A stretch of 64,000 bases of DNA from a virus (taxonomy: Duplodnaviria > Heunggongvirae > Uroviricota > Caudoviricetes): the IMG/VR virus record IMGVR_UViG_2778261161_000002; one strand, given 5' to 3'. Of this stretch, positions 8,483 to 64,000 are shown piece after piece; the first letter of the stretch is position 1, and each line of letters begins with the position of its first letter. The notes beneath the pieces are model-generated. The model was not told the origin of the DNA. It saw nothing but the letters and a program-made list of their open reading frames with translations, and ran no database searches. Position numbers and translations under genes: made by a program.

Positions 8483-8500
8483 TCGCCTTGTTAAGTTAAA

Positions 8501-8509
8501 TTTCTAACA
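8501..8509 (+). promoter_or_regulatory. Operator-like motif TTTCTAACA (copy 1)
   Basis: aaaTTTCTAACAtagtg upstream of ORF 8683. Confidence 0.5.
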
Positions 8510-8599
8510 TAGTGTATTTATATACACTGTTGATCCTGGTGGATGGGATCGAGTAGGATCGCGGTCACTGCTCCGGTAGCGACTGCCAAAAAAGCAAAA

Positions 8600-9645: not shown

Positions 9646-9699
9646 CCTGTGTGTCTACAAAGCATCCCAATGATCGGAAAATGCTCGCTCGATGATTTG

Positions 9700-9708
9700 T
9701 GTTAGAAA
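9700..9708 (-). promoter_or_regulatory. Operator-like motif (copy 2, reverse orientation)
   Basis: ttgTGTTAGAAAAtt upstream of first immI-like module. Confidence 0.5.
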
Positions 9709-9929
9709 ATTAATTTGCTGTTTCTAAATCGGAATGTATGATCTGCATCATCGACTGAAGTCATCCATTGCTGAAATTTTTAGTTGATCTTCCATGTTTT
9801 CAGGCTTATATTCATGCCGTCGTAGCAAATTCTGCGACCAGGTTTGACAGCCTGAATGTTAGTGCGGACAACCGCAGATTTCCGATATTGCGGTATTTTT
9901 GTGTCCGTAAACCGCGTTACGCCCGAATT

Positions 9930-20603: not shown

Positions 20604-20644
20604 TTTATTGCATCTTCCGATACCGTCATCAAACTAATAAAATA

Positions 20645-20653
20645 TGTTAGAAA
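20645..20653 (-). promoter_or_regulatory. Operator-like motif (copy 4)
   Basis: atatGTTAGAAAAct upstream of ORF 20668. Confidence 0.5.
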
Positions 20654-20667
20654 ACTAATTTAACAAA

Positions 20668-21795: not shown

Positions 21796-21893
21796 GGAGA
21801 TCGTCGTCAGGAAATCATTGACGCTTGCCGGGTATGGGCGAACGAATGGGATAAGAAGAATGGGGGGGTAGAAGATCTTTATGGGAAATAATG

Positions 21894-21902
21894 TGTTAGA
21901 AA
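21894..21902 (-). promoter_or_regulatory. Operator-like motif (copy 5)
   Basis: aatgTGTTAGAAAtcta. Confidence 0.45.
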
Positions 21903-22049
21903 TCTAAAATCACAATTCGAATGTATTGATTGTGAAGATAACTTAACATAGAATTTTCCTTGCTGGTGGGCGGTACCCACGTTTCGCTTGCTGGGCTTGA
22001 TAGTCACTTATTGGTTATTGTTCTCCCACCAGCATTTAACAAATTAAAG

Positions 22050-25940: not shown

Positions 25941-25961
25941 CGTTAGATATTTAATATTAAT

Positions 25962-25970
25962 TTTCTAATA
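25962..25970 (+). promoter_or_regulatory. Operator-like motif variant TTTCTAATA (copy 7)
   Basis: aatTTTCTAATAtaatc with partial inverted partner cGTTAGATA at 25941. Confidence 0.4.
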
Positions 25971-26048
25971 TAATCATCTTTTTACCAGTCTATACAGTTT
26001 TAACATTCTCATTATCATCCCCTCGGTCATTTCCTGCCCGGGGGATTA

Positions 26049-29337: not shown

Positions 29338-30375
29338 TTACCAGAGCTTCGCGGCGTACTGCGTTTGGGGGAATGTGTATCCGTAACGTTCTTCGATTGC
29401 TTTGCCGTATTTTTTACGAGCTTCATTCAGTTTAATGCCGGTCAGGTCGTCTCCAGAGGCCATCATTACGTCTAACAATTCCAGATCCATTTTATCCAGC
29501 CTTGCCATTGCTTCACGTGATGTACGTATCTTACGTTCAATGATATGGCGAATAGCCGGATCGGCATCCTCCAGCATCTTAGCGGATTTCTGCTTAAGGC
29601 TTTCATTGCGAATATCGATGTTCCTTAAGATGTACGACTTCGCAACGTAGCTTGGCTGGTGTTTTTCCAGGTCACGAACACGATATAAGTTAAAATCGCC
29701 GAGAAGGCTGCAAGGTACCGATTCGACGCCAGAATAAATTGTAATGCTCCGGCGTTCACCAACATTATTGACAACGGGGATCGTTGTCTTCGGTAGTCTT
29801 GCGAAAACCAATGCGCCATGTGCGCCAACTCTAAAGCGAGAAAGGGCATTGCTGCCTTCGATGTTTGTTGTCAGCACAACATCTGTATATGCCTCTTTAC
29901 GCGCCCGGTAGATCTCGCCTTCAGGCTCAGCTTCAAAGAAGCGCTGTTCTTCTTCAAGAGCACCTACGATTTGAGAAAAAACCCTATTTTTCAGGCTTTT
30001 CTTTATGATTTTGTCGTATTTTTTTAGCAATTGTTCACGTGTAAATGTACGTGTTGTTGTAGCGCTTTGCACAACGACATGCGTGCTTTGATTGGTGTCC
30101 TCAATGATGAATGGGATCGGAGAATATACAGACTCAACAATGTTCGACGCTTTGCCGTCGGCATCGCGGCACATGTCAACGAAGGCTTTCCATTCAGCAA
30201 GACATTTTTCAGCTTCTTCTAATATGTTTTGGTCATGCGTTAATGCAACATGGCGGAATTCCTCGCCAGCATAACTGGTATCATGGAAAACAGAGTTTGC
30301 GACCACCAGCTCTTTCCACCGTTCAGCGGTTTGCAGGAACCGTTTGTACTCTTTCTCGATCGACTTCTTACTCAT
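29338..30375 (-). CDS. Putative C1-like immunity repressor, 345 aa
   Basis: Position between pacB and lox/cre as in P1; operator-like motif 20 bp upstream of its start; no family motif verified. Confidence 0.4.
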   Translation of the reverse strand: MSKKSIEKEYKRFLQTAERWKELVVANSVFHDTSYAGEEFRHVALTHDQNILEEAEKCLAEWKAFVDMCRDADGKASNIVESVYSPIPFIIEDTNQSTHVVVQSATTTRTFTREQLLKKYDKIIKKSLKNRVFSQIVGALEEEQRFFEAEPEGEIYRARKEAYTDVVLTTNIEGSNALSRFRVGAHGALVFARLPKTTIPVVNNVGERRSITIYSGVESVPCSLLGDFNLYRVRDLEKHQPSYVAKSYILRNIDIRNESLKQKSAKMLEDADPAIRHIIERKIRTSREAMARLDKMDLELLDVMMASGDDLTGIKLNEARKKYGKAIEERYGYTFPQTQYAAKLW

Positions 30376-30394
30376 TATTCCTACTCGATTTAGT

Positions 30395-30403
30395 TTTCTA
30401 ACA
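30395..30403 (+). promoter_or_regulatory. Operator-like motif (copy 8) at promoter of repressor-like gene
   Basis: agtTTTCTAACAtaaaatt; partial second copy TTTTAGAAAA at 30477..30488. Confidence 0.5.
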
Positions 30404-30584
30404 TAAAATTACTATGACAAATTTATGTCGAATAACAGAGTGAGTAAAGGATCGAACTGTGATTTTTTGTCATCAATTTTAGAAAACCAACCGTAGAAAC
30501 CACACTTCGCAAATTAAAGACCATGAAGGCAACGTGTTACTGGTCATCATCAATCTATGATGGATTTAAAAAAATCGGCATTTT

Positions 30585-30769: not shown

Positions 30770-31798
30770 ATGAGTGAATTAATTATCTCTGGCAGTTCCG
30801 GTGGTTTTCTGCGCAACATTGGCAAAGAGTACCAGGAAGCCGCAGAAAACTTTATGCGGTTCATGAATGACCAGGGGGCTTATGCGCCGAATACTCTGCG
30901 CGACCTCCGGTTGGTGTTTCATTCCTGGGCGCGCTGGTGTCACGCTCGCCAGCTTGCCTGGTTTCCGATCTCACCAGAAATGGCCCGCGAGTATTTTCTT
31001 CAGCTGCATGATGCCGATCTGGCTTCGACCACCATTGATAAGCACTACGCCATGCTGAACATGCTGCTTTCGCATTGTGGCCTTCCGCCACTTTCGGATG
31101 ATAAAAGTGTTTCTCTGGCTATGCGGCGCATCCGGCGCGAAGCGGCAACTGAAAAAGGCGAACGAACAGGCCAGGCTATACCGCTTCGGTGGGACGATCT
31201 GAAACTGCTCGACGTCCTGTTGTCCAGGTCAGAACGGCTGGTGGACCTGCGCAACCTGGCTTTTCTCTTTGTTGCATACAATACGCTGATGCGTATGTCG
31301 GAAATATCGCGTATTCGTGTAGGTGATCTGGACCAAACAGGTGACACTGTCACGCTACATATTTCACACACGAAGACAATAACGACCGCCGCCGGGCTTG
31401 ATAAGGTGCTTTCCCGTCGCACTACCGCTGTGCTGAATGACTGGCTGGATGTTTCCGGGCTTCGCGAGCATCCTGACGCTGTGCTGTTCCCGCCGATACA
31501 CCGTAGCAATAAGGCCAGGATCACGATAACGCCCCTTACTGCACCTGCAATGGAGAAAATATTCAGCGACGCCTGGGTGTTGCTGAATAAAAGAGATGCT
31601 ACGCCAAACAAAGGAAGATACCGGACGTGGACCGGGCATAGTGCACGCGTCGGGGCCGCTATTGATATGGCTGAAAAGCAGGTGTCTATGGTGGAGATCA
31701 TGCAGGAAGGAACCTGGAAGAAACCGGAAACACTTATGCGGTATCTTCGCCGTGGCGGCGTGTCTGTGGGGGCTAATAGCCGCCTGATGGATTTGTAA
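30770..31798 (+). CDS. cre: Cre-like tyrosine recombinase, 342 aa
   Basis: Blocks WFPISPEMAREYFLQL, NMLLSHCGLPPLSDDKSVSLAMRRIRRE, IRNLAFLFVAYNTLMRMSEISRIRVGDL, WTGHSARVGAAIDMA, LMRYLRR align with P1 Cre including catalytic R, H, R, W, Y. Confidence 0.85.
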   Translation: MSELIISGSSGGFLRNIGKEYQEAAENFMRFMNDQGAYAPNTLRDLRLVFHSWARWCHARQLAWFPISPEMAREYFLQLHDADLASTTIDKHYAMLNMLLSHCGLPPLSDDKSVSLAMRRIRREAATEKGERTGQAIPLRWDDLKLLDVLLSRSERLVDLRNLAFLFVAYNTLMRMSEISRIRVGDLDQTGDTVTLHISHTKTITTAAGLDKVLSRRTTAVLNDWLDVSGLREHPDAVLFPPIHRSNKARITITPLTAPAMEKIFSDAWVLLNKRDATPNKGRYRTWTGHSARVGAAIDMAEKQVSMVEIMQEGTWKKPETLMRYLRRGGVSVGANSRLMDL

Positions 31799-31804
31799 AT
31801 TAAA

Positions 31805-31813
31805 TTTCTAACA
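31805..31813 (+). promoter_or_regulatory. Operator-like motif (copy 9)
   Basis: aaaTTTCTAACAcatct just after cre stop. Confidence 0.45.
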
Positions 31814-31871
31814 CATCTTTTTAGATTAACATCTTTGCTGTAAAGTACCCTCGCCTATTTAGGAGGGTGCT

Positions 31872-43970: not shown

Positions 43971-44012
43971 AATGCATACCGACTCTGTTTTGTTCCGAGC
44001 GGTAAAATAATA

Positions 44013-44021
44013 TGTTAGAAA
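44013..44021 (-). promoter_or_regulatory. Operator-like motif (copy 10) with inverted partner TTCTAAC at 44034..44041
   Basis: atatGTTAGAAAActaaaatcaatGTTCTAACg. Confidence 0.5.
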
Positions 44022-44068
44022 ACTAAAATCAATGTTCTAACGCATTTTTGAGTGCGTAAGTGATTTGA

Positions 44069-48417: not shown

Positions 48418-48584
48418 AACATAAGCACTGCGAAAAGCTCAATACCAAGTTCAAGTAGCGCCAACGCCCCGAAAAACAACACATAGAACAGGCCAATCTC
48501 ATTCACAGATGGCTGGTGGATCGCACTTAAAGCTATAAGCATCATGTCCTCCAAACAGTTATCAGGAATGATATTAATGTTTTG

Positions 48585-48593
48585 TGTTAGAAA
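48585..48593 (-). promoter_or_regulatory. Operator-like motif (copy 11), promoter region of leftward operon
   Basis: tttgTGTTAGAAAAtcaa. Confidence 0.5.
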
Positions 48594-48662
48594 ATCAATT
48601 TTGAATATCTAACTGTTTTGATCAATCATAGAAAAATAGCTGAAAAGTAAGAGGCAGCCATC

Positions 48663-49241
48663 ATGCAGAAACAGAGCTATTGGGAGAAACAGAGACAAAA
48701 AGCCATGCAAAAATTGGCTGACCCAGCCTGGCGAGAGGAACAAAGGGCAAAGCGCCTTCAACAAGCTCAACGCCAGCAGCAGCGAGCGAGAGAAAAAGCC
48801 GCATCGCCTGAATATCGGCAAAAGAAAATTGAAAAAGCAAAGCAATATGAACAGCGGAGAAAAGATAAAGCTGTATCCGCTCCGCCCAAAAAAACACGCA
48901 CGTCACGCGGCCTGAAGGGCAGATCACTCACAGCCGATGAACGCCGGATACAGACCGCTATCGGTACTCTCCCCTGCATTGCCTGCCATATTCACGGGCA
49001 ACATAGCCCAGTGGTATCCCTGCACCATATCTTCGGGAGAACGGCAGAGAACGCACATAAATATGTCCTCCCTTTGTGTAAATGGCACCACCAGTACGCA
49101 GCGCCAGCCGAGGTCCGAGAACAATATCCCTGGCTGGTCCCTGTTCATGCTGATGGAAAAATAGGCGGAAAAGCAGATTTCATACGGCACAATGCCGATG
49201 AAATGGCGTTGTATCAGATGGCGATTGAATTAATAAATTAG
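48663..49241 (+). CDS. Ref-like HNH endonuclease with basic disordered N-terminus
   Basis: K/R/Q-rich N-terminal 90 aa then CIACHIHG ... HHIFG ... CKWHH metal-binding pattern. Confidence 0.5.
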   Translation: MQKQSYWEKQRQKAMQKLADPAWREEQRAKRLQQAQRQQQRAREKAASPEYRQKKIEKAKQYEQRRKDKAVSAPPKKTRTSRGLKGRSLTADERRIQTAIGTLPCIACHIHGQHSPVVSLHHIFGRTAENAHKYVLPLCKWHHQYAAPAEVREQYPWLVPVHADGKIGGKADFIRHNADEMALYQMAIELIN

Positions 49242-49242
49242 T

Positions 49243-49251
49243 TTTCTAACA
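49243..49251 (+). promoter_or_regulatory. Operator-like motif (copy 12)
   Basis: agtTTTCTAACAtttta. Confidence 0.45.
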
Positions 49252-49879
49252 TTTTAAGTTGAATTGTAAATTTCTCCGATGTACATTCACTACCGATTGG
49301 CACACCGGTCAACTTTTTGAGACAAACTGTTTAGTTTTTCGTATTATTGCCCCCGCCATACCTATGGCGGTGCAATATAGGTGGCTGAAAAGCCCCCGTT
49401 GACTCACGGTGTTCCAGCCTTTATTGCGCCGCCACCAGACCGTGGAACAGTCGATGGCGGCTCCGAAAGCAAGGAGTCACTACACTATGAACAACTACAG
49501 TCTTTTCCCATCACTCGTCGTCCACCACTCACGCGATAATCTGCATTCTTTATTCGCGCTGGGGGAGTCAAAATGACTGTTCGCTACCTCAACTTTCAAA
49601 TCAAGAACATTACTGGCGGTTGCTATGACTGGTTTGTCACTCTCGGAAAAGAAGTGATTACCGGGAAGCTGGATGAAGTGAAAGCTAAAGCAATGGCCTA
49701 CGCCTGCAAGCAAGCCCGGAAGAAATCCGCCAAAGCATAAAATACTGACTGTTGCGCCCTGGCATTATCGTGGGGTATATTTCTACGGCACCTTAGAAAA
49801 ACGGGTGCCGGGATTGGAACCCCGGATAATGCAAAAGGCGACACAGACGCCGAAAGCGTCTTTTCTTGTGTCATGCCAT

Positions 49880-52974: not shown

Positions 52975-53206
52975 TGCACCGTTCCTTCATGCAATCAAAA
53001 TGACTTTTATGTTATAAAAATAATCAGCCAAATCAACATGATTTAGGCCAAATTTCTGTCAAAAAATAAAATCCACAAAAAGTGGTTGACACTATTTTGG
53101 AAATCACAAACTGCACATAATCCATCGCGCTAACGGCTCCCGTTGAAGGTTCTTTTGACGATTAACTTTCAGCCGAAGCGCGGTAGGGAGTCATAACGCC
53201 AAAGCA

Positions 53207-56564: not shown

Positions 56565-56924
56565 TCAAATACCAACCAAGCTTTCAAGAGGAATGCCAAA
56601 CTGGGAATGTAAACGGCGAATCATAGGTAACGTCAAATTTCGTGTCCCATTTAGCACTTCGTAAACACGATTTGACTTACCAATCGCCGGTTCCAGATCC
56701 TTCACGGTCAGCCCTTGCTGTTCCATACGGAATTTAATGGCCTCAATAGGTGATGGTGGCTCAATTGGGTAATGTTTTTTCTCGTACTCCTCAATGAGAA
56801 GACTCATAACCTCAAAGAAATCACCTTCCGGAGTATTCATTTCCGGTTCGTTATCGAACATCGGTTCGACCGCACGCAGTGCGGCCTCATAATCTTGTTC
56901 TGTACGGATAGGTTTAATGTTCAT
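56565..56924 (-). CDS. HigA-like HTH antitoxin/regulator (E. coli YgjM type)
   Basis: C-terminal GLTVKDLEPAIGKSNRVYEVLNGTRNLTLPMIRRLHSQFGIP resembles HigA HTH. Confidence 0.6.
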   Translation of the reverse strand: MNIKPIRTEQDYEAALRAVEPMFDNEPEMNTPEGDFFEVMSLLIEEYEKKHYPIEPPSPIEAIKFRMEQQGLTVKDLEPAIGKSNRVYEVLNGTRNLTLPMIRRLHSQFGIPLESLVGI

Positions 56925-56936
56925 TAATTACAAAGG

Positions 56937-56962
56937 AAAGCCCACTTGCTAAGTGGGCTTTT
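56937..56962. terminator. Hairpin AAGCCCAC-ttgctaa-GTGGGCTT + T-run
   Basis: Between higA and HigA-like gene. Confidence 0.55.
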
Positions 56963-56980
56963 TGTATGTGTTTTACTATA

Positions 56981-57319
56981 TCAGGCTGCTTTTTTATTCA
57001 GGTTCCGCTGAGAAATAAATTTTTCAGCAGTATTGATACGACTTAACTCTTCCTGAACGCGCATATCATTTTCGACTTCCCACAGATCTACTGCGGTCTG
57101 AAGATTAATCCAAAAATCTACAGAAGTATCGAATGCTTTTGCCAGGCGATATGCCATATCCATCGTTAGCTTACGATTATTATTAACAAGAGCACTTACG
57201 GTGTTACGATGAACATGAAGTATTTCTGCTAACTCGTTGATCTTCAGCTCTAACGGCTCCAGGTATTCGTACAGCAGGATATCACCTACGGTCGTCGGTT
57301 TTCTGGTTGCCTGTTTCAT
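56981..57319 (-). CDS. higA: HigA antitoxin (XRE-type HTH)
   Basis: TVGDILLYEYLEPLELKINELAEILHVHRNTVSALVNNNRKLTMDMAYRLAKAFDTSVDFWINLQ. Confidence 0.8.
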   Translation of the reverse strand: MKQATRKPTTVGDILLYEYLEPLELKINELAEILHVHRNTVSALVNNNRKLTMDMAYRLAKAFDTSVDFWINLQTAVDLWEVENDMRVQEELSRINTAEKFISQRNLNKKAA

Positions 57320-57389
57320 TTTTTGCCCTTACTAGCGTGCGTATTAAGTGGACTCTGGTCAGAACCCGGTCCGTAACCGGGTATCTGTT

Positions 57390-57692
57390 TTAGTATTTGT
57401 GAGGGTCGAGATACAAGTCCTCGGCCTTTCCGTTAACCCACTTAAAAATTAACCTATATTGCTTATTCACCCTTACTGATGAATAGCCATTTAGCTTCCC
57501 TGACAGTTCCTCATACCGATTACCTGGTGGTGATCTTAAATCCTTACAGGTAGTTGCGGCATTGATAATGTCCAACTTCCGTGACAATGTCATATGAATA
57601 TCAGGAGGTATCTTTCTATGTGGTGTTGAAAATTCAAAAAAATCATCAAGCCACGCATCCCTGAAATCCTTTATGTTAATTTTTTTGGTCAT
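57390..57692 (-). CDS. higB: HigB toxin (RelE/ParE superfamily)
   Basis: YRLIFKWVNGKAEDLYLDPHKY C-terminus; upstream of higA. Confidence 0.75.
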   Translation of the reverse strand: MTKKINIKDFRDAWLDDFFEFSTPHRKIPPDIHMTLSRKLDIINAATTCKDLRSPPGNRYEELSGKLNGYSSVRVNKQYRLIFKWVNGKAEDLYLDPHKY

Positions 57693-59413: not shown

Positions 59414-60394
59414 GTGGCCCAGGAGTTACAACAATATTTTCTACAGTCAGTGCTCATTAACGATAACAAAGTGCCACGAGACTGGATTTTTACCGCAGTA
59501 TATGTAGAAAAAACCAGCCTCAAAGCCCCTTTGCTAAAACTGGAAATTCATGACGCTACCGGCACCGTAATTGATGACTGGAAAGCCAAATACGGTGCAT
59601 CGCTGGTGGCTGAAATGGGCGATCCAAACGGTAATGTAGGCACTTTTAAAACAGATTTCTTTGTTACGTCTGCAATGCTGGCTGGTGATGTTGTTACCGT
59701 TATTGCTGTCAGTGAAGACGTGCGCAGGTTTAAGATCCCCTCCCCGCGCACAAATTTACATACCAACAAAACACCAGACGCTATATTCAAGGCATATTCC
59801 GGCAAGCTTAAAATTACCAGCAGCGTGCTAAAACGCGCAGTTACATATCATCTGAATGCTGGTGACAAACCGTCAAAAATGCTTTCGGAGATAGCGCGAG
59901 ACAAAGGTGCATTGTGTTGGGTATGTCGGGGGGAATTTAACTTTTACACCCTGGCTGATCTGATGAAGCAAACGCCATCATTTACCTACGAGGGGAATAA
60001 CCCTAAAGCAGAATACACTTTGTCAAAAATGCGCCTACTCCAACAGGAACATGCGTCAACAGCAAAGAATCAATATCGTTTTGTTGGGTATTCCATGACC
60101 GATGGCTACGTCGAATATGGCGATAGCTCACTCCCAGTGCGTTATATATCCGACTCTGATATGGAAACTCTTCGCAATATGCAGCTGTCTCTCGTCCCCA
60201 AAATGGATATAGAAGTCGCAGGCAATCCTGATATAAAACCGGGGATGGTAATAGAGATTATCGTATACCGCTATGACCAGGAAAACCGCATTGATGAATC
60301 AATGCCCCGTAAGCTGATAGTAAAAAATGTTGCGCACTTTGAGGACCGCGTAGGCTACACAACACGAATGATATTGGGAGTGCCGAACAAATGA
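59414..60394 (+). CDS. Hypothetical protein (possible baseplate component), 326 aa
   Basis: ORF track; coupled to spike-like gene. Confidence 0.45.
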   Translation: MAQELQQYFLQSVLINDNKVPRDWIFTAVYVEKTSLKAPLLKLEIHDATGTVIDDWKAKYGASLVAEMGDPNGNVGTFKTDFFVTSAMLAGDVVTVIAVSEDVRRFKIPSPRTNLHTNKTPDAIFKAYSGKLKITSSVLKRAVTYHLNAGDKPSKMLSEIARDKGALCWVCRGEFNFYTLADLMKQTPSFTYEGNNPKAEYTLSKMRLLQQEHASTAKNQYRFVGYSMTDGYVEYGDSSLPVRYISDSDMETLRNMQLSLVPKMDIEVAGNPDIKPGMVIEIIVYRYDQENRIDESMPRKLIVKNVAHFEDRVGYTTRMILGVPNK

Positions 60395-61044
60395 AGCGTA
60401 GAGCGCAAATTGTTGGAACTGTGCACCCGGCAGGGCTTATGCGTGCTCAAGTCCGTGTTTTACCTGACTGGAATGGCGTTCCTGATGACGATCTACCCTG
60501 GGCGGAATACCAGTTACCCATCGGGAACGCTTTTGTACCTACAGTCAAAGGTGACCTGGTCTGGGTAGAGTTTCCTTATTTAGATGTTAACGGTCGAATA
60601 GACACCAGACGCCCAATGATAGTTGGTGCCGCTCAGGATGCACCGGGAGGAATTCCAAACGTTGCACCAGAAGCATCTGGCAAAGGCAACGGCTGGACGC
60701 CGCCGGAAGTAGATGGAGCACCTCCCCGCCCCCAAATCTCAGCAACGAAAGACTTCGTTATTCACCGCAACAATATTCTTGAAGTACGAACTGCTGGTGG
60801 CGGCTATGAAATTGCCAATACGGCAGCTGGCTCAAGGATTGGCATGAATGAGTCCGGGCAGATATATATCATTGGTCCGGCTGATGTAATCGTGAATGCA
60901 GGAGGGAGTGTTAACGTCAAATCAGCCAACAACATCAATGTTAATGGGGAAAATATAGCTGTCACCGCTAACGGGGACATAGCTTTCAAGGCAGGAGGAA
61001 CCTTTCAGGCCACTGCTGGCAACTTCGATTTCAAGAAAGGATAG
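60391..61044 (+). CDS. Baseplate spike/gpV-like protein
   Basis: N-terminal OB-like GDLVWVEFPYLDVNGRIDTRRPMIVG and C-terminal beta-helix-like repeats VNAGGSVNVKSANNINVNGENIAVTANG. Confidence 0.55.
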   Translation: MKRRAQIVGTVHPAGLMRAQVRVLPDWNGVPDDDLPWAEYQLPIGNAFVPTVKGDLVWVEFPYLDVNGRIDTRRPMIVGAAQDAPGGIPNVAPEASGKGNGWTPPEVDGAPPRPQISATKDFVIHRNNILEVRTAGGGYEIANTAAGSRIGMNESGQIYIIGPADVIVNAGGSVNVKSANNINVNGENIAVTANGDIAFKAGGTFQATAGNFDFKKG

Positions 61045-61081
61045 AAAATGCACCCATTTATGTTAGATAATTAACATGCAT

Positions 61082-61090
61082 TTTCTAACA
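61082..61090 (+). promoter_or_regulatory. Operator-like motif (copy 13) with inverted partner TGTTAGATA at 61061..61069
   Basis: tttaTGTTAGATAattaacatgcaTTTTCTAACAtaaat immediately upstream of rdgC. Confidence 0.5.
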
Positions 61091-61103
61091 TAAATGGTGA
61101 GAC

Positions 61104-62009
61104 ATGAGATCAGTCGCTTTCAAAAATATCTTCATCTATCGTCTTTCACGCGAAGTTAACTGGGATACCGCAGAAGTAAATGCTGCCCTTAGCAAGTTTG
61201 TGTTTACCCCATGCGGTTCTCAGGATATTGCTAAAGCTGGTTGGACCCCCGTCCTTGGCGACAACCTCACCCATGAATACAAGGGTTTTCTTCTGATACA
61301 GCATAAACGAGAGGAAAAAATCCTACCTTCTCAAGTGCTCAAAGAAGAGCTACAGAAAAAAATCCTGAAACTTGAAGAAGAACAAGACAGAAAGCTGAAG
61401 AAGACCGAAAAAGATTCGCTGAAGGATGAAGTGCTTCACTCTCTTCTTCCTCGTGCTTTCACGAGAAAATCAGTCGCTAAAATCCTGATAGACCGAAGCA
61501 ATCATCTGGTTTTTGTCGAGGCGAGCAGTGCTAAAAAAGCAGAGGATCAGCTGGCTTTGTTACGGAAATCTCTTGGCAGCTTGCCCGTTGTCCCCTTCTC
61601 TCCGAAAGACCCATTAGAACTGACCATCACTGGCTGGATTAAAAATGGCTTCCCGAACGGTTTCCGTGCCGGTGAGGAAGCGACCTTAAAAGCATTGCTT
61701 GATGATGGCGGCGCGGTCCGCTGCAAAAAAGTGGACCTGCTATCCGACGAGATCATGAGTCATATAGAAGCTGGTAAGGTTGCAACCACAGTTGCGGTTA
61801 ACTGGCAAGACCGTGCATTTTTCAGACTGAATGACGATATGAGTATCAAGGCTTTGTCGTTCAGCGACGAATTGTACGACCAGAACGACGATATTGATCG
61901 AGGGGATGTTGCTCAACGATTTGACGCTGACTTTATCCTGTTTACTGCTGAATTATCAGCGATGTTCACTTCGCTGGTGGAGGCCGTTGGTGGTGAAGCA
62001 GAACGTTAA
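61104..62009 (+). CDS. rdgC: Recombination-associated protein RdgC
   Basis: [69 protein letters not shown] blocks match E. coli RdgC. Confidence 0.9.
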
Positions 62010-62022
62010 CAATAGACCTCTT

Positions 62023-62673
62023 ATGGTGAGTCTTTGTGATTTCACGGGGAAAATGGTCGCCCCCTGGCTGGAGCATGGTATAGATGCTGTTATCGTCGAT
62101 CCACAACACGCAAAGACCACAGATGAGCTGATGCAATCAGGCGCAGTTCTGACACGTATCAGTGCGATTATCGATAGTGATGAAGTTTATGCTTTTCTCC
62201 GAAATAATTTACAACGTATTGTGTTTTTAGCTGGTTTTCCGCCGTGCACGGACCTTGCTGTTTCCGGTGCGCGCTGGTTTGCACATAAGGCTGACAAAGA
62301 TCCGGTTTTCCAGTTCAAAGCGATGCAAGTCGTCTGGCAGTGTTACGACATTGCAAAGATGATTGGTTTCCCGTACATGATTGAAAACCCGGTCAGCCAA
62401 ATATCGACATTCTGGCGTAAACCTGATCACATCTTCCATCCTTACCACTTCACTGCATATTGCAAGGAAGACAATTACACCAAAAAAACATGCCTCTGGA
62501 GCGGGCAGGGCTTTGTCATGCCTGATGCCCTAATGGACGAATCATTAGGCAAGCCAGATAACAGAATCCATACCGCGCCACCTGGGCCTGAAAGGGCTAA
62601 TTTTCGAAGTGCTACTCCGAATGGATTCGCAAAAGCAGTTTTCGAAGCAAATAAGGGGGTGCTCTATGAGTAA
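62023..62673 (+). CDS. Short C5-cytosine-methyltransferase-like protein (atypical, about 216 aa)
   Basis: GFPPCTDLAVSG (PC motif IV-like) and MIENPV (ENV-like) in correct order and spacing; no TRD; stop overlaps dam start. Confidence 0.4.
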   Translation: MVSLCDFTGKMVAPWLEHGIDAVIVDPQHAKTTDELMQSGAVLTRISAIIDSDEVYAFLRNNLQRIVFLAGFPPCTDLAVSGARWFAHKADKDPVFQFKAMQVVWQCYDIAKMIGFPYMIENPVSQISTFWRKPDHIFHPYHFTAYCKEDNYTKKTCLWSGQGFVMPDALMDESLGKPDNRIHTAPPGPERANFRSATPNGFAKAVFEANKGVLYE

Positions 62674-63571
62674 ATCTCTAGTAAGCACAGCCATAGAAAG
62701 ACATGATTCGATGGCGGAAATTAGCTATATGCGCACCATTCGGACTCCGGATGAATACGAGCGTCCGATCTTCAAATGGGTAGGCGGTAAATTTTCAGAG
62801 TTGCCTATAGTGCTTGAGCATCTACCACACGGTAAGCGGTTAATAGAACCATTCGTTGGTGGCGGTTCCGTATTTACGAATGCAGGATTTCGCCACAACC
62901 TGCTTAATGATATTAACGGTGACTTGATTAACTTCTATCAGACATTGCAGCGAGAAAGACATTCTCTAGTCACGCTGTCATATAGTTTTTTCCAAAATTA
63001 CAACAACGCTGACGCTTACCTCGAAGTGCGTGAGGCATTTAACAGAGGAAAGTATGACCAACTACATCATGCTGCTGCCTTTTTGTACCTTAATCGGCAC
63101 TGTTTTAATGGCGTAACACGGTACAACCAAAATGGCGAGTTCAACGTAGGGTATGGTAAATACAAAGCGCCCTACTTCCCACATGCAGAGATGGAGGCAT
63201 TTTTGGCTGATGACGTACTCAAAAACACTTCCTTTGTATCAGGTGACTTTGCTGGCGTCATCGAGGCGGCTGGTGAAGGCGATGTGATTTTTTGCGATCC
63301 GCCGTATGAACCGCTGCCGGATACAGAAGGGTTTACCAGTTATTCAGGAAATAGCTTCCGTTTCGACGAACAGAAACGGCTGGTATCTCTATTGGTGGAA
63401 GCCCACCAGCGCGGCGCTAAGGTAGTGATTACAAATAGTGGTGCGCCAAACATCCGTGAACTATATGAAGGAAACGGGTTTAAAGTACATCATATGGCAG
63501 CCAGACGGTCGGTTTCCTGCAAGGCGTCAACACGTGTAGTTGCTAACGATATAATTGCAATAATGAAGTAA
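62666..63571 (+). CDS. dam: Dam-family N6-adenine DNA methyltransferase (GATC)
   Basis: FKWVGGK, EPFVGGGSVF, FLYLNRHCFNGVTRYN, GEFNV, CDPPY align with E. coli Dam. Confidence 0.85.
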   Translation: MSKSLVSTAIERHDSMAEISYMRTIRTPDEYERPIFKWVGGKFSELPIVLEHLPHGKRLIEPFVGGGSVFTNAGFRHNLLNDINGDLINFYQTLQRERHSLVTLSYSFFQNYNNADAYLEVREAFNRGKYDQLHHAAAFLYLNRHCFNGVTRYNQNGEFNVGYGKYKAPYFPHAEMEAFLADDVLKNTSFVSGDFAGVIEAAGEGDVIFCDPPYEPLPDTEGFTSYSGNSFRFDEQKRLVSLLVEAHQRGAKVVITNSGAPNIRELYEGNGFKVHHMAARRSVSCKASTRVVANDIIAIMK

Positions 63572-63573
63572 AA

Positions 63574-63600
63574 AACGCCGCAGTAGCGGCGTTTACTTTT
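63574..63600. terminator. Bidirectional terminator AACGCCGC-agta-GCGGCGTT; strong T-run on minus strand (glnS terminator)
   Basis: Read directly. Confidence 0.7.
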
Positions 63601-63619: not shown

Positions 63620-64000
63620 TTAACCTAACTTCGCCCAGGTATCACGCAGCCCAACGGTGCGGTTAAATACCGGTTTTTCCGCCGTAGAATGGCGGCTGTC
63701 GAGGCAGAAATAACCTTCACGCTCAAACTGGAATGCTTTACCCGCTACCGCTTCTTTCAGCGACGGTTCAGCAAAGCCTTGTTTGATCACCAGCGATTCC
63801 GGGTTAATCACCGACAGGAAATCATCCGCAGCACCTGGGTTCGGCACGTTGAACAGACGATCGTACAGGCGGATTTCAACCGGCAGCGCATGTTCCGCGC
63901 TCACCCAGTGAATAACGCCTTTCACTTTACGACCATCTGCCGGATCTTTGCTTAAGGTGTCGGCGTCATAAGTACAGAAGATGGTGGTGATATTGCCTTC
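63620..64000 (-). CDS. glnS: Glutaminyl-tRNA synthetase, 3' end (host gene, 5' part beyond window)
   Basis: [100 protein letters not shown] matches E. coli GlnRS C-terminus. Confidence 0.9.

Follow-up and report, generated by a model that had tools for sequence, protein, structure and literature searches.

A putative repressor-operator pair upstream of the RdgC-family gene hrdC in a D6-like phage-plasmid

The hrdC gene of the plasmid prophages P1 and P7 was reportedly described, with a predicted C1 operator named Op(dam), in the P1 genome paper of Lobocka et al. from 2004, and phage D6 is said to have been the subject of a 2018 study by Gilcrease and Casjens. In the P7 record (AF503408), Op(dam) is annotated as 'predicted to control expression of upf64.0, hrdC and dam'. 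For P1 itself, hrdC/dmt transcripts have been grouped with those of replication and processing genes in P1vir lytic infection, and hrdC was dispensable for lytic growth in a CRISPRi screen. RdgC homologs are present in 301 phage records, and RdgC biochemistry has been summarised (PMC11077077, PMC2965237). The novelty implied by the original prediction, which was made from the sequence alone, is thus absent, as the gene is annotated in P1 and P7 with a predicted C1 operator and is annotated in D6 as well. With direct precedent in P1 and P7, hrdC with its operator pair is a well-supported but ordinary arrangement.

Here, we analysed a 64,000-nucleotide stretch of a Caudoviricetes record (IMGVR_UViG_2778261161_000002; hereafter, the window), which is a D6-like, P1-family plasmid prophage (phage-plasmid) with the same gene order as D6. 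Its nucleotide identity to D6 is 85.8%, and by this measure it is placed as a distinct lineage within the D6 group. The counterpart of hrdC in D6, orf65 (MF356679), has the same neighbours, palindrome, and operator pair as in the window, and the palindrome arms differ between the two elements at one position in both halves (ATA in the window, ACA in D6). As in P1 and P7, the RdgC-family gene is carried by a plasmid prophage and is directly followed by phage DNA methyltransferase gene(s), and as in P7 (54% protein identity) it is preceded by a member of a dispersed operator family assigned to the prophage repressor. The differences are those of layout and sequence: two head-to-head sites stand directly before hrdC in the window, whereas in P7 a small gene (upf64.0/uhr) separates hrdC from a single site; hrdC follows tail/baseplate genes here but lies beside the plasmid replication region in P7; the methylase is split into two genes, unlike in P1 and P7; and the repressor is a weak homolog of P7 C1, sharing only 20% identity with it across 241 residues (E 2e-8).

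The hrdC operon and its product

The baseplate gene upstream of hrdC ends the tail-gene block (Table 1). Downstream, hrdC opens an operon of three genes that continues with a DNA methyltransferase gene and a Dam methyltransferase gene and is closed by a G+C-rich hairpin, a terminator common to this operon and the convergent glnS. A Pfam search with the methyltransferase-like product returned no family, and the Dam-type product matches the C-terminal half of P1 Dmt.

Table 1. Features of the hrdC locus and copies of the dispersed motif, in window positions
Feature	Coordinates	Strand	Basis or score
Upstream baseplate gene (P1 gene 5 homolog)	60391..61044	+	D6 annotation; PHROG 430
Predicted sigma-70-like promoter	61042..61071	+	-35 TAGAAA (61042-61047), 18-nt spacer, -10 GATAAT (61066-61071)
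Palindrome, arms 61054-61071 and 61080-61097	61054..61097	.	Arms 18 nt, 94% complementary; spacer 8 nt
Left putative repressor (C1-type) operator	61056..61077	-	PWM 29.8 bits; overlaps -10 hexamer
Right putative repressor operator	61074..61095	+	PWM 27.3 bits; covers predicted transcription start, reaches ribosome-binding site
Shine-Dalgarno-like GGTGAG	61096..61101	+	Read from sequence; 2 nt before ATG; first bases pair inside hairpin
hrdC, RdgC-family protein, 301 aa (D6 orf65; P1/P7 hrdC counterpart)	61104..62009	+	Pfam, PDB, and PHROG matches
DNA methyltransferase-like gene (D6 orf64), operon gene 2	62023..62673	+	PHROG 757, E 1.7e-76; D6 annotation
Dam-type N6-adenine methyltransferase (D6 orf63)	62663..63571	+	Pfam PF02086, E 2.5e-56; D6 annotation
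G+C-rich hairpin terminator	63573..63594	.	Terminator scan, both strands: 9 pairs, 6 G-C
C1-type prophage repressor gene, presumed motif binder	29338..30375	-	D6 orf1 annotated 'prophage repressor, similar to P1 C1'
Motif copy upstream of c1 (analogue of P7 Op(c1))	30387..30408	+	29.9 bits; D6 counterpart 194-215
Motif copy upstream of lpa (analogue of P7 Op(lpa))	25954..25975	+	28.8 bits
Motif copy upstream of repL (analogue of P7 Op(rep))	8493..8514	+	25.7 bits
Motif copy upstream of icd/antirepressor block (analogue of P7 Op(c4))	9695..9716	-	33.2 bits
Motif copy upstream of ref (analogue of P7 Op(ref))	48580..48601	-	30.4 bits
Motif copy at end of ref, upstream of second icd/antirepressor block	49235..49256	+	25.5 bits
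Motif copy between simB and mat (analogue of P7 Op(mat))	53005..53026	-	24.5 bits
Second head-to-head operator pair, upstream of pdcB homolog	44008-44029, 44026-44047	-, +	29.6, 12.2 bits
Motif copy upstream of pmgS homolog	20640..20661	-	31.8 bits
Motif copy downstream of pmgS, tRNA-side intergenic region	21889..21910	-	24.8 bits
Motif copy at end of cre, upstream of next gene block	31797..31818	+	22.9 bits

The product is an RdgC-family protein. It matches Pfam RdgC (PF04381) over the full length (residues 6-298 on profile positions 3-298 of 298; E 4.6e-101, 338.5 bits against a cut-off of 25), it is a full-length homolog of the solved E. coli RdgC structure 2OWL (E 2.1e-109), and it also matches PHROG 724. 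Amino-acid identity is 88% to the D6 protein and only 59.5-60% to E. coli RdgC, which makes the original description of the gene as highly similar to host RdgC an overstatement. Nine of ten functionally tested E. coli RdgC residues are kept (R97, K98, K100, K101, R118, F120, E218, H222, and K227); these include the basic residues of the fingertips (R96, K97, K99, and K100 in HrdC) and those of the gate interface (R117 and F119 in HrdC), whose roles are taken from work on the E. coli protein (PMC2965237). The tenth belongs to the hydrogen-bond network of the horseshoe interface (Q212, E218, H222, and K227), in which E, H, and K are kept and Q212 is replaced by V210. Valine is found at this position in HrdC and its close D6-like subclade, with glutamine in more distant D6-like proteins and in P7 HrdC, and Q212A in E. 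coli RdgC abolishes function in vivo (PMC2965237). RdgC-like activity of HrdC is therefore not guaranteed, although ~60% identity to 2OWL would predict a toroidal dimer, non-specific binding to duplex DNA, and RecA inhibition. Beyond this residue, hrdC differs from E. coli rdgC in residing on a mobile element, in being apparently repressor-controlled, and in belonging to a clade separate from the chromosomal genes.

A dispersed motif family and the inverted pair before hrdC

A 22-nt motif, AAATTAATTTTCTAACATAAA, occurs in 13-14 copies in the window, in both orientations and always in intergenic positions when compared with the ORF lists. Scanning with a position weight matrix (PWM) gave 13 sites above 22 bits, compared with a maximum of 15.6 bits in Markov shuffles, and three of the high-scoring sites (those at the end of ref, downstream of pmgS, and at the end of cre) were absent from the seed set. 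The 9-nt core, TTTCTAACA, ranks third by frequency among the 9-mers of the window, with 12 occurrences against 0.58 expected and none of 100 shuffles reaching 12, and the motif is therefore not a product of chance. By comparison, the half-site 14-mer TCTAACATAAATGG showed no apparent repetition (8 matches with up to 3 mismatches against 5.8 expected); the part shared by the copies extends from the core in the opposite, 5' direction. Homologous positions in D6 carry the same sites, and so do those in a distant Enterobacter hormaechei relative (hrdC region ~66% identical in nucleotides), among them positions upstream of its rdgC and its repressor gene.

The genes that have annotated C1 operators in P7 and are flanked by the motif in the window are c1, lpa, repL, c4/icd/ant, ref, and mat; in addition, P7 Op(sht) lies upstream of the counterparts of pmgR/pmgS, by our own equivalence of the genes, and a window copy lies near pmgS. 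The operator sequence itself differs, being AAATTAATTTTCTAACATAAA in the window and ATTGCTCTAATAAATTT in P7; the latter P1/P7 consensus has no match in the window with up to 3 mismatches, and only a short TCTAA core is common to both. From this comparison, the window system appears to work like that of P1 but with a different operator specificity. Operators are absent from the published D6 annotations examined, and a literature search on phage D6 and the C1 repressor gave no match. The motif thus provides a candidate operator consensus and a candidate regulon map for D6-like phage-plasmids, which are widespread in E. coli, Shigella, Salmonella, and Enterobacter.

Two of the copies form the palindrome before hrdC, one in each arm, and this inverted repeat takes up most of the 59-bp gap upstream of the gene; a second 11-nt inverted pair (61042-61052 and 61077-61087) overlaps it. 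The TCTAAC cores of the two head-to-head sites are 22 bp apart (~two helical turns), and the pair upstream of the pdcB homolog has the same core spacing and is also found in D6. Two asymmetric inverted sites at one promoter are likewise a feature of the bivalent C1 operators of P1 and P7, e.g., Op(ban a/b), except that the P7 Op(ban) sites converge, with 3' ends overlapping by 6 bp, whereas the hrdC sites diverge, with their 5' ends facing. The left-operator core GTTAGATAAT is invariant in 18 variants, and the right-operator ATTTTCTAACA is invariant in 7 diverged relatives and kept down to ~63% protein identity. Across relatives, conservation holds for the right site and for the -10-like hexamer, whereas spacer and flanks vary; some relatives (Enterobacter, P0109, and P0115) have a degenerate left site or have lost it, so the operator pair is not essential to control. 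The predicted promoter has 9/12 consensus matches, and its GATAAT is invariant in the alignment of relatives, while the promoter scan as a whole found 4 promoter-like sites against 5.8 expected from shuffles, i.e., no excess. The inverted operator-like pair that the original prediction placed directly before the rdgC homolog is thus real and part of a dispersed family; its start had been set at 61061, which falls inside the left arm, and the true start is at about 61042-61054.

Proposed repressor control and competing explanations

Most probably, the motif serves as operator for the C1-type repressor encoded by the element itself, as suggested by analogy with P1 and P7 and by the c1-proximal copy. 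The presumed repressor gene is in a syntenic position, with pacB and cre as its neighbours, and a Pfam search with its product returned no family. Repressor control of hrdC, put forward in the original prediction as putative, is, we infer, well supported, with the motif family placed like the C1 operators of P1 and P7. We propose that the weak sigma-70 promoter in the 59-bp gap would drive the hrdC operon. With a C1-type operator over this promoter, the operon would be off in a lysogen, where the repressor would occupy both sites, and would come on early after infection or antirepressor-mediated induction, along with ref, repL, lpa, and other motif-flanked genes. HrdC, like E. coli RdgC, may then form a dimeric ring that closes around duplex DNA irrespective of sequence and holds back the strand exchange and co-protease activity of RecA, and both methylases would modify the replicating phage DNA. 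Such control would make HrdC an early lytic function and not a lysogenic-conversion function. The modulation of recombination or SOS during lysogeny that had been suggested for this gene clashes with the repressor control suggested alongside it, and the P1 transcripts noted above were reported in lytic infection. For the whole model (a C1-type operator pair repressing the hrdC operon, early lytic expression, and an RdgC-like HrdC), we estimate a probability of roughly 0.7.

An altogether different account would take the gene as host DNA, or as a recent capture of the host's own rdgC, as its orthology-level similarity to E. coli RdgC might suggest; we consider this extremely improbable and rejected a host-DNA origin given the chromosomal searches, the identities, and the tree. 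The window is 99.8% identical in nucleotides to E. coli plasmids of ~90 kb, and in a search of 5,426 E. coli genomes all 63 matches were on plasmids and none was chromosomal, bearing out the prediction that the gene is phage-encoded. HrdC is 59-61% identical to the chromosomal RdgC of many Enterobacterales genera, and in relatives with enough flanking sequence its gene is neighboured by P1-type tail genes and phage methylases, with the exception of one short contig that has a small ORF before hrdC. The phylogeny against host rdgC, which had been proposed as a check, places hrdC apart from the host genes: in the neighbour-joining (NJ) tree, the D6-like clade (100% bootstrap) falls outside the chromosomal Enterobacterales rdgC clade (88% bootstrap) and joins P7 HrdC and a Klebsiella phage RdgC (69% bootstrap), and the E. 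coli RdgC row in this tree is without about the first 47 residues, which leaves the D6-like and chromosomal clades unaffected. The alternative for the motif is that a different regulator binds it, or that it belongs to the promoters of a class of early genes, given that it is assigned to the C1 homolog by analogy, is unlike the P1 operator consensus, and contains -10-like words (TAACAT and ATAAAT). This we regard as very unlikely: the sites occur in both orientations relative to adjacent genes, like the asymmetric P1 operators and unlike a promoter element; a copy lies 12 nt upstream of the c1 start codon in the window and in D6, and another 17 nt before the Enterobacter repressor gene; the genes next to the sites correspond to the C1 regulon of P7; and the PWM scan of the window gave no match ahead of the blocks of holin, portal, or tail genes.

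Symmetry and co-variation of the palindrome arms

C1-type control of hrdC leaves one feature of the palindrome aside. Among 18 distinct variants, both partners have changed in the seven outer stem pairs, with a covariation score of 0.252 compared with 0.089 +/- 0.015 in shuffles (0/500 reaching 0.252) and at most 0.115 with the pairing slid; this arm variation is carried by only about four phylogenetic groups and hence by few independent events. In the other operator copies of the window, these outer-arm positions differ freely from copy to copy, and repressor recognition therefore does not explain the outer-arm symmetry. The outer-arm co-variation is left unexplained by operator function.

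As RNA, the segment 61035-61115 folds at -20 kcal/mol (z -3.9) with the GG(U)G of the Shine-Dalgarno sequence paired, and RNA from 61078 onward is unstructured (z +1.15). A reading of this hairpin as a terminator was rejected, as its A+T-rich stem is followed by UGAGACAUG with no U-tract and the terminator scan reported nothing at 61045-61103. A search of the hairpin region against Rfam 15 gave no match, the sole sub-threshold hit being a chance match elsewhere (NRON, 14.7 bits against a gathering score of 50).

Additionally or instead, then, the extended palindrome could act as a functional RNA hairpin in read-through transcripts of the tail genes, where a stem of 18-21 bp would bury the start of the Shine-Dalgarno sequence or serve as a processing or stabilising site, and transcripts under repressor control, starting in the spacer and without the left arm, would be freely translated. 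The stable fold and the unstructured downstream segment, the covariation of the outer pairs at positions that are free in other operator copies, and the terminator scan, which found none from the baseplate gene to hrdC, all fit this reading, as do the G.U pairs on the + strand (8 cells in the co-varying outer pairs, columns 7-13, and 11 in the whole helix), set against one mismatched cell that is A.C by our reading of the 18-variant alignment. It is nevertheless unlikely, as the few varying groups weaken the covariation and the strong hairpin is limited to subclades of E. coli, Shigella, and Salmonella (z -3.9 to -5.4), being weaker in the Shigella dysenteriae type (z -1.4) and absent from Klebsiella, Raoultella, and Enterobacter relatives (z -0.1 to -1.1), in which the right operator is retained. 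Moreover, all 18 variants share a fixed T.T mismatch within the stem, the stem is neither a canonical terminator nor a match to Rfam, and P1-type late promoters (AAGTGACTT-N4-TANNNT, from P7 annotations), from which such read-through would start, gave only scattered, unconvincing matches in the window. We give tentative weight, still short of an even chance, to the arms being operators only, with the extended symmetry a mutational by-product of quasi-palindrome template switching in replication, whereby one arm is copied onto the other and apparent compensatory changes arise without selection for a hairpin. Quasi-palindrome template-switch mutagenesis is established in E. coli, and the both-side changes are concentrated in just such a substrate, a long near-perfect inverted repeat; further in its favour, the operator pair upstream of the pdcB homolog has much less symmetry and distant relatives have no hairpin. 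Against this account, correction is incomplete, as seen from the T.T mismatch that is fixed in the stem and from the variability of the 8-nt spacer, and the excess of G.U over A.C on the + strand, albeit in small counts, is unexpected for a strand-neutral DNA process. A dual use, with the palindrome serving as head-to-head operators in DNA and, in read-through RNA, as a stem that hides the hrdC ribosome-binding site or directs processing, seems distinctly unlikely; if true, HrdC and methylase output would be set by the promoter in use, free early and gated late.

As a separate observation, the same element brings together a predicted RecA antagonist of RdgC type, a RecA-dependent nuclease of Ref type, and Chi sites in ~29-fold excess, a combination that makes it a sensible choice for studying what phage RdgC homologs do.

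The hrdC gene and the element that carries it

The original prediction of a phage-borne rdgC homolog is confirmed: hrdC belongs to the RdgC family and corresponds to P1/P7 hrdC and D6 orf65, and its product matches the RdgC Pfam family from end to end (E 4.6e-101), PHROG 724 ("exonuclease recombination-associated"), and 2OWL, the solved E. coli RdgC structure (E 2.1e-109). HrdC shares 59.5-60% identity with E. coli RdgC, 59-61% with RdgC proteins encoded on the chromosomes of Pantoea, Serratia, Yersinia, Photorhabdus, Citrobacter, Klebsiella, and other Enterobacterales, and 54% with P7 HrdC. Across ~100 clusters of 301-residue hrdC-like proteins, encoded on ~85-97-kb contigs of E. coli, Shigella, Salmonella, Klebsiella, Raoultella, and Enterobacter, identity to HrdC falls in a graded series between 98% and 60%. 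In the suggested phylogeny against host rdgC (neighbor-joining, with P. aeruginosa RdgC as root), a clade with 100% bootstrap support unites the D6-like proteins and lies outside that of the chromosomal Enterobacterales sequences (88%); P7 HrdC and a Klebsiella phage RdgC group with the D6-like proteins with modest support (69%). Given these identity levels, the graded series, and the tree position, we regard hrdC, on sequence comparison, as a long-standing resident of mobile elements with no recent capture. Homologs of RdgC are carried by 301 phage records (Vibrio, Pseudomonas, Klebsiella, Salmonella, and other phages), so RdgC on a phage is not in itself unusual.

Nucleotide identity of the region is 85.8% to Escherichia phage D6 and 99.8% to a set of ~90-kb E. 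coli plasmids, and in 63 matching E. coli genomes all matches were plasmid-borne and none chromosomal. A homolog of P1 baseplate gene 5 lies on one side of hrdC and two DNA methyltransferase genes on the other, with gene order unchanged in RefSeq plasmids, and the window holds homologs of P1 c1, lpa, pacAB, cre, ref, repL, icd, darB, and tail genes. The D6 identity, plasmid-only matches, and P1 homologs together show the window to be a D6-like plasmid prophage of the P1 family. A host origin by synteny, the alternative named with the original prediction, is ruled out by the exclusively plasmid matches in E. coli and the P1-type gene context.

The E. coli protein is a ring-shaped dimer that binds DNA non-specifically (PMC11077077, PMC2965237). 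Of ten residues that Briggs et al. tested (PMC2965237), the hrdC protein conserves nine: four fingertip basic residues, R118 and F120 of the gate, and E218, H222, and K227 of the horseshoe. At the tenth position, Q212 in E. coli, HrdC and its close D6-like relatives have valine (V210); the valine is restricted to an E. coli/Shigella/Salmonella D6-like subclade, and glutamine is retained in P7 HrdC and more distant D6-like proteins. Because Q212A abolishes the in vivo function of E. coli RdgC (PMC2965237), full RdgC-like activity of HrdC is likely, not certain. RdgC is also structurally similar to lambda RexA, and phage RdgC homologs have been suggested to act instead in exclusion or induction (PMC12315714).

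Putative repressor sites before hrdC

The gap between the preceding stop codon (61044) and the hrdC start is 59 bp and holds the predicted inverted pair as an 18-nt repeat (61054-61097); repeat and gene stand as described, but the start proposed for the feature, 61061, falls inside the left arm. The two sites (Table) face each other by their 5' ends with TCTAAC cores 22 bp apart. A second head-to-head pair of the same geometry, one strong and one weak site with cores 22 bp apart, lies upstream of the pdcB homolog (44008-44047), and D6 has both pairs.

Features of the hrdC control region and operon
Feature	Coordinates	Strand	Detail
Inverted repeat	61054-61071 / 61080-61097		18 nt, 94% complementary, 8 nt apart
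Left putative operator	61056-61077	-	22 nt
Right putative operator	61074-61095	+	22 nt; runs up to ribosome-binding site
Predicted promoter	-35 61042-61047; -10 61066-61071		TAGAAA; GATAAT; promoter-like match
Ribosome-binding site	61096-61101		GGTGAG
hrdC ORF	61104..62009	+	301 residues
Val codon for E. coli Gln212	61731-61733		codon 210 of hrdC
Methyltransferase-like gene	62023-62673		PHROG 757; 13 nt after hrdC
Dam-type gene	62663-63571		PF02086; overlaps preceding methyltransferase-like gene
G+C-rich hairpin closing operon	63573-63594		common to operon and convergent glnS

An exact-word search of the window, using the arm's outer part, seemed negative at first, and inspection of matches revealed that the shared motif extends across the TCTAAC core to its other side. 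A weight matrix from ten seed sites, with 20 Markov shuffles as control, yielded 13 sites above 22 bits in the window against a shuffle maximum of 15.6 bits; three of them (21889, 31797, and 49235) were absent from the seed set, and the weak partner site at 44026 was also found. Independently of the matrix, TTTCTAACA is the window's third most frequent 9-mer (12 copies versus 0.58 expected), and the motif consensus is AAATTAATTTTCTAACATAAA. All sites are intergenic when checked against ORF lists, with one copy 12 nt upstream of the c1 homolog, others upstream of lpa, repL, ref, mat, pmgS, the pdcB homolog, and both icd/antirepressor blocks, and a pair upstream of hrdC. D6 carries the same sites at homologous positions. 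In an Enterobacter hormaechei relative (~66% nucleotide identity in the hrdC region), the core precedes the repressor gene, lpa, ref, icd, the pmgS and pdcB homologs, and rdgC, and ATTTTCTAA is among the top-frequency 9-mers. Very probably, then, each arm is an operator for the C1-type repressor that the element itself encodes, presumably the c1 product.

GATAAT and ATTTTCTAACA show no change among relatives at 66-99% nucleotide identity, in which spacer and flanks vary; relatives as distant as ~63% protein identity still have the right site and a -10-like hexamer, and the left site decays in some lineages. On the promoter match, the -10 would fall within the left site and transcription would be expected to start where the right site begins, but the call is weak, promoter-like sites in the region being no commoner than in shuffles.

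The P1 operator consensus has no match in the window and shares the TCTAA core alone with our motif, a difference that fits the weak similarity between the window and P7 C1-type repressors (20%, E 2e-8). The motif-flanked genes nevertheless correspond to P7 genes with annotated C1 operators, the P7 record listing Op(c1a-d), Op(lpa), Op(rep), Op(c4), Op(ref), Op(mat), and Op(sht), as well as Op(dam), "predicted to control expression of upf64.0, hrdC and dam". By analogy, the hrdC control region probably works like a P1-type C1 operator, although the site sequence is different, the layout is bivalent and head-to-head, there is no intervening uhr-like gene, and hrdC lies beside tail genes and not, as in P7, beside the plasmid replicon. 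The D6 operator motif may already have been described in the literature.

Each icd/antirepressor block has its own upstream motif copy (9695-9716 and 49235-49256), so two putative repressor-controlled antirepressor modules appear to be present. The most distant hrdC relatives (60-62% identity; L020:1426-1506 and L019:336-416) lack the TTTTCTAACA site. The inverted repeat that precedes their hrdC is a different one, GTTAGATTT...AAATCTAA, and may reflect a repressor of other specificity. Among IMG/VR loci L022-L109, 62 of 88 matches to GTTAGATAATN{5,12}TTTCTAAC had no RdgC in the examined stretch, and these may be chance occurrences in A+T-rich DNA or truncated contigs.

The palindrome as a possible RNA hairpin

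The palindrome is longer than two operators need. Across 18 distinct control-region variants (plasmids, encoding contigs, and IMG/VR contigs), the operator cores are invariant and seven outer pairs change on both sides (e.g., AAATGG, AATTGG, ATTG.., AGTTTTG), with a covariation score of 0.252 that none of 500 shuffles attained (0.089 ± 0.015) and that exceeds the 0.115 maximum of slid pairings; at other operator copies in the window, these positions vary freely. Intermediates with a mismatch are predominantly G.U on the + strand (8 such cells among the outer pairs that co-vary and 11 in the whole helix, against one A.C cell, counted by hand in the alignment), hinting at RNA-level constraint in transcripts reading through from the tail genes. 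The region folds as RNA at -20 kcal/mol (z -3.9) with the first ribosome-binding-site bases paired, while a transcript from the predicted promoter would lack the left arm and be unstructured.

We nonetheless consider a functional hairpin in such read-through transcripts unlikely. The strong hairpin is confined to E. coli/Shigella/Salmonella subclades and missing in distant relatives that have the right operator, the outer-pair variation stems from about four lineages, and a T.T mismatch is fixed in all variants. A late-promoter search, bearing on whether tail-gene transcription runs into hrdC, gave scattered, unconvincing matches. Moreover, template switching within quasi-palindromes could produce the same covariation without selection. 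We give a dual DNA/RNA role of the palindrome a small chance.

Predicted operon, timing, and neighboring genes

The methylases that follow hrdC are split in the window and D6, but form a single fused PF00145+PF02086 gene, like P1 Dmt, in Klebsiella, Raoultella, and other relatives (L015, L016, and L020). Under repressor control, the hrdC operon would be silent in the lysogen and expressed early during lytic growth, the opposite of the role during lysogeny first proposed. The RdgC matches and the 18-nt repeat make both observed parts of the original prediction real, and its interpretation appears largely correct. In P1, hrdC and dmt were analyzed alongside replication/processing genes in a P1vir infection transcriptome, and a CRISPRi screen scored hrdC as non-essential for lytic growth.

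Several other genes caught our attention. A glnS gene (glutaminyl-tRNA synthetase, D6 orf62; 63620-63925, - strand) sits on this phage-plasmid and runs past the window end. Genes for a RelE/HigB-type toxin, a HigA antitoxin, and another HTH protein (56565-57692, - strand) form an insertion, opposite in strand to its surroundings, between tail genes 25 and 7. Two genes on the D6-like plasmid of E. hormaechei, one for a Shedu-family immune nuclease and the other ssb (L193:41708-42325), are absent from the D6 annotation. Finally, Chi (GCTGGTGG) occurs 45 times in 64 kb versus 1.57 expected (0 of 100 shuffles reach 45), with one copy inside hrdC (61973-61980); the commonest 9-mers of the Enterobacter relative are likewise Chi-containing words, and a homolog of the Ref-type RecA-dependent nuclease (48663..49241) shares the element with the RdgC-like HrdC and the Chi excess.
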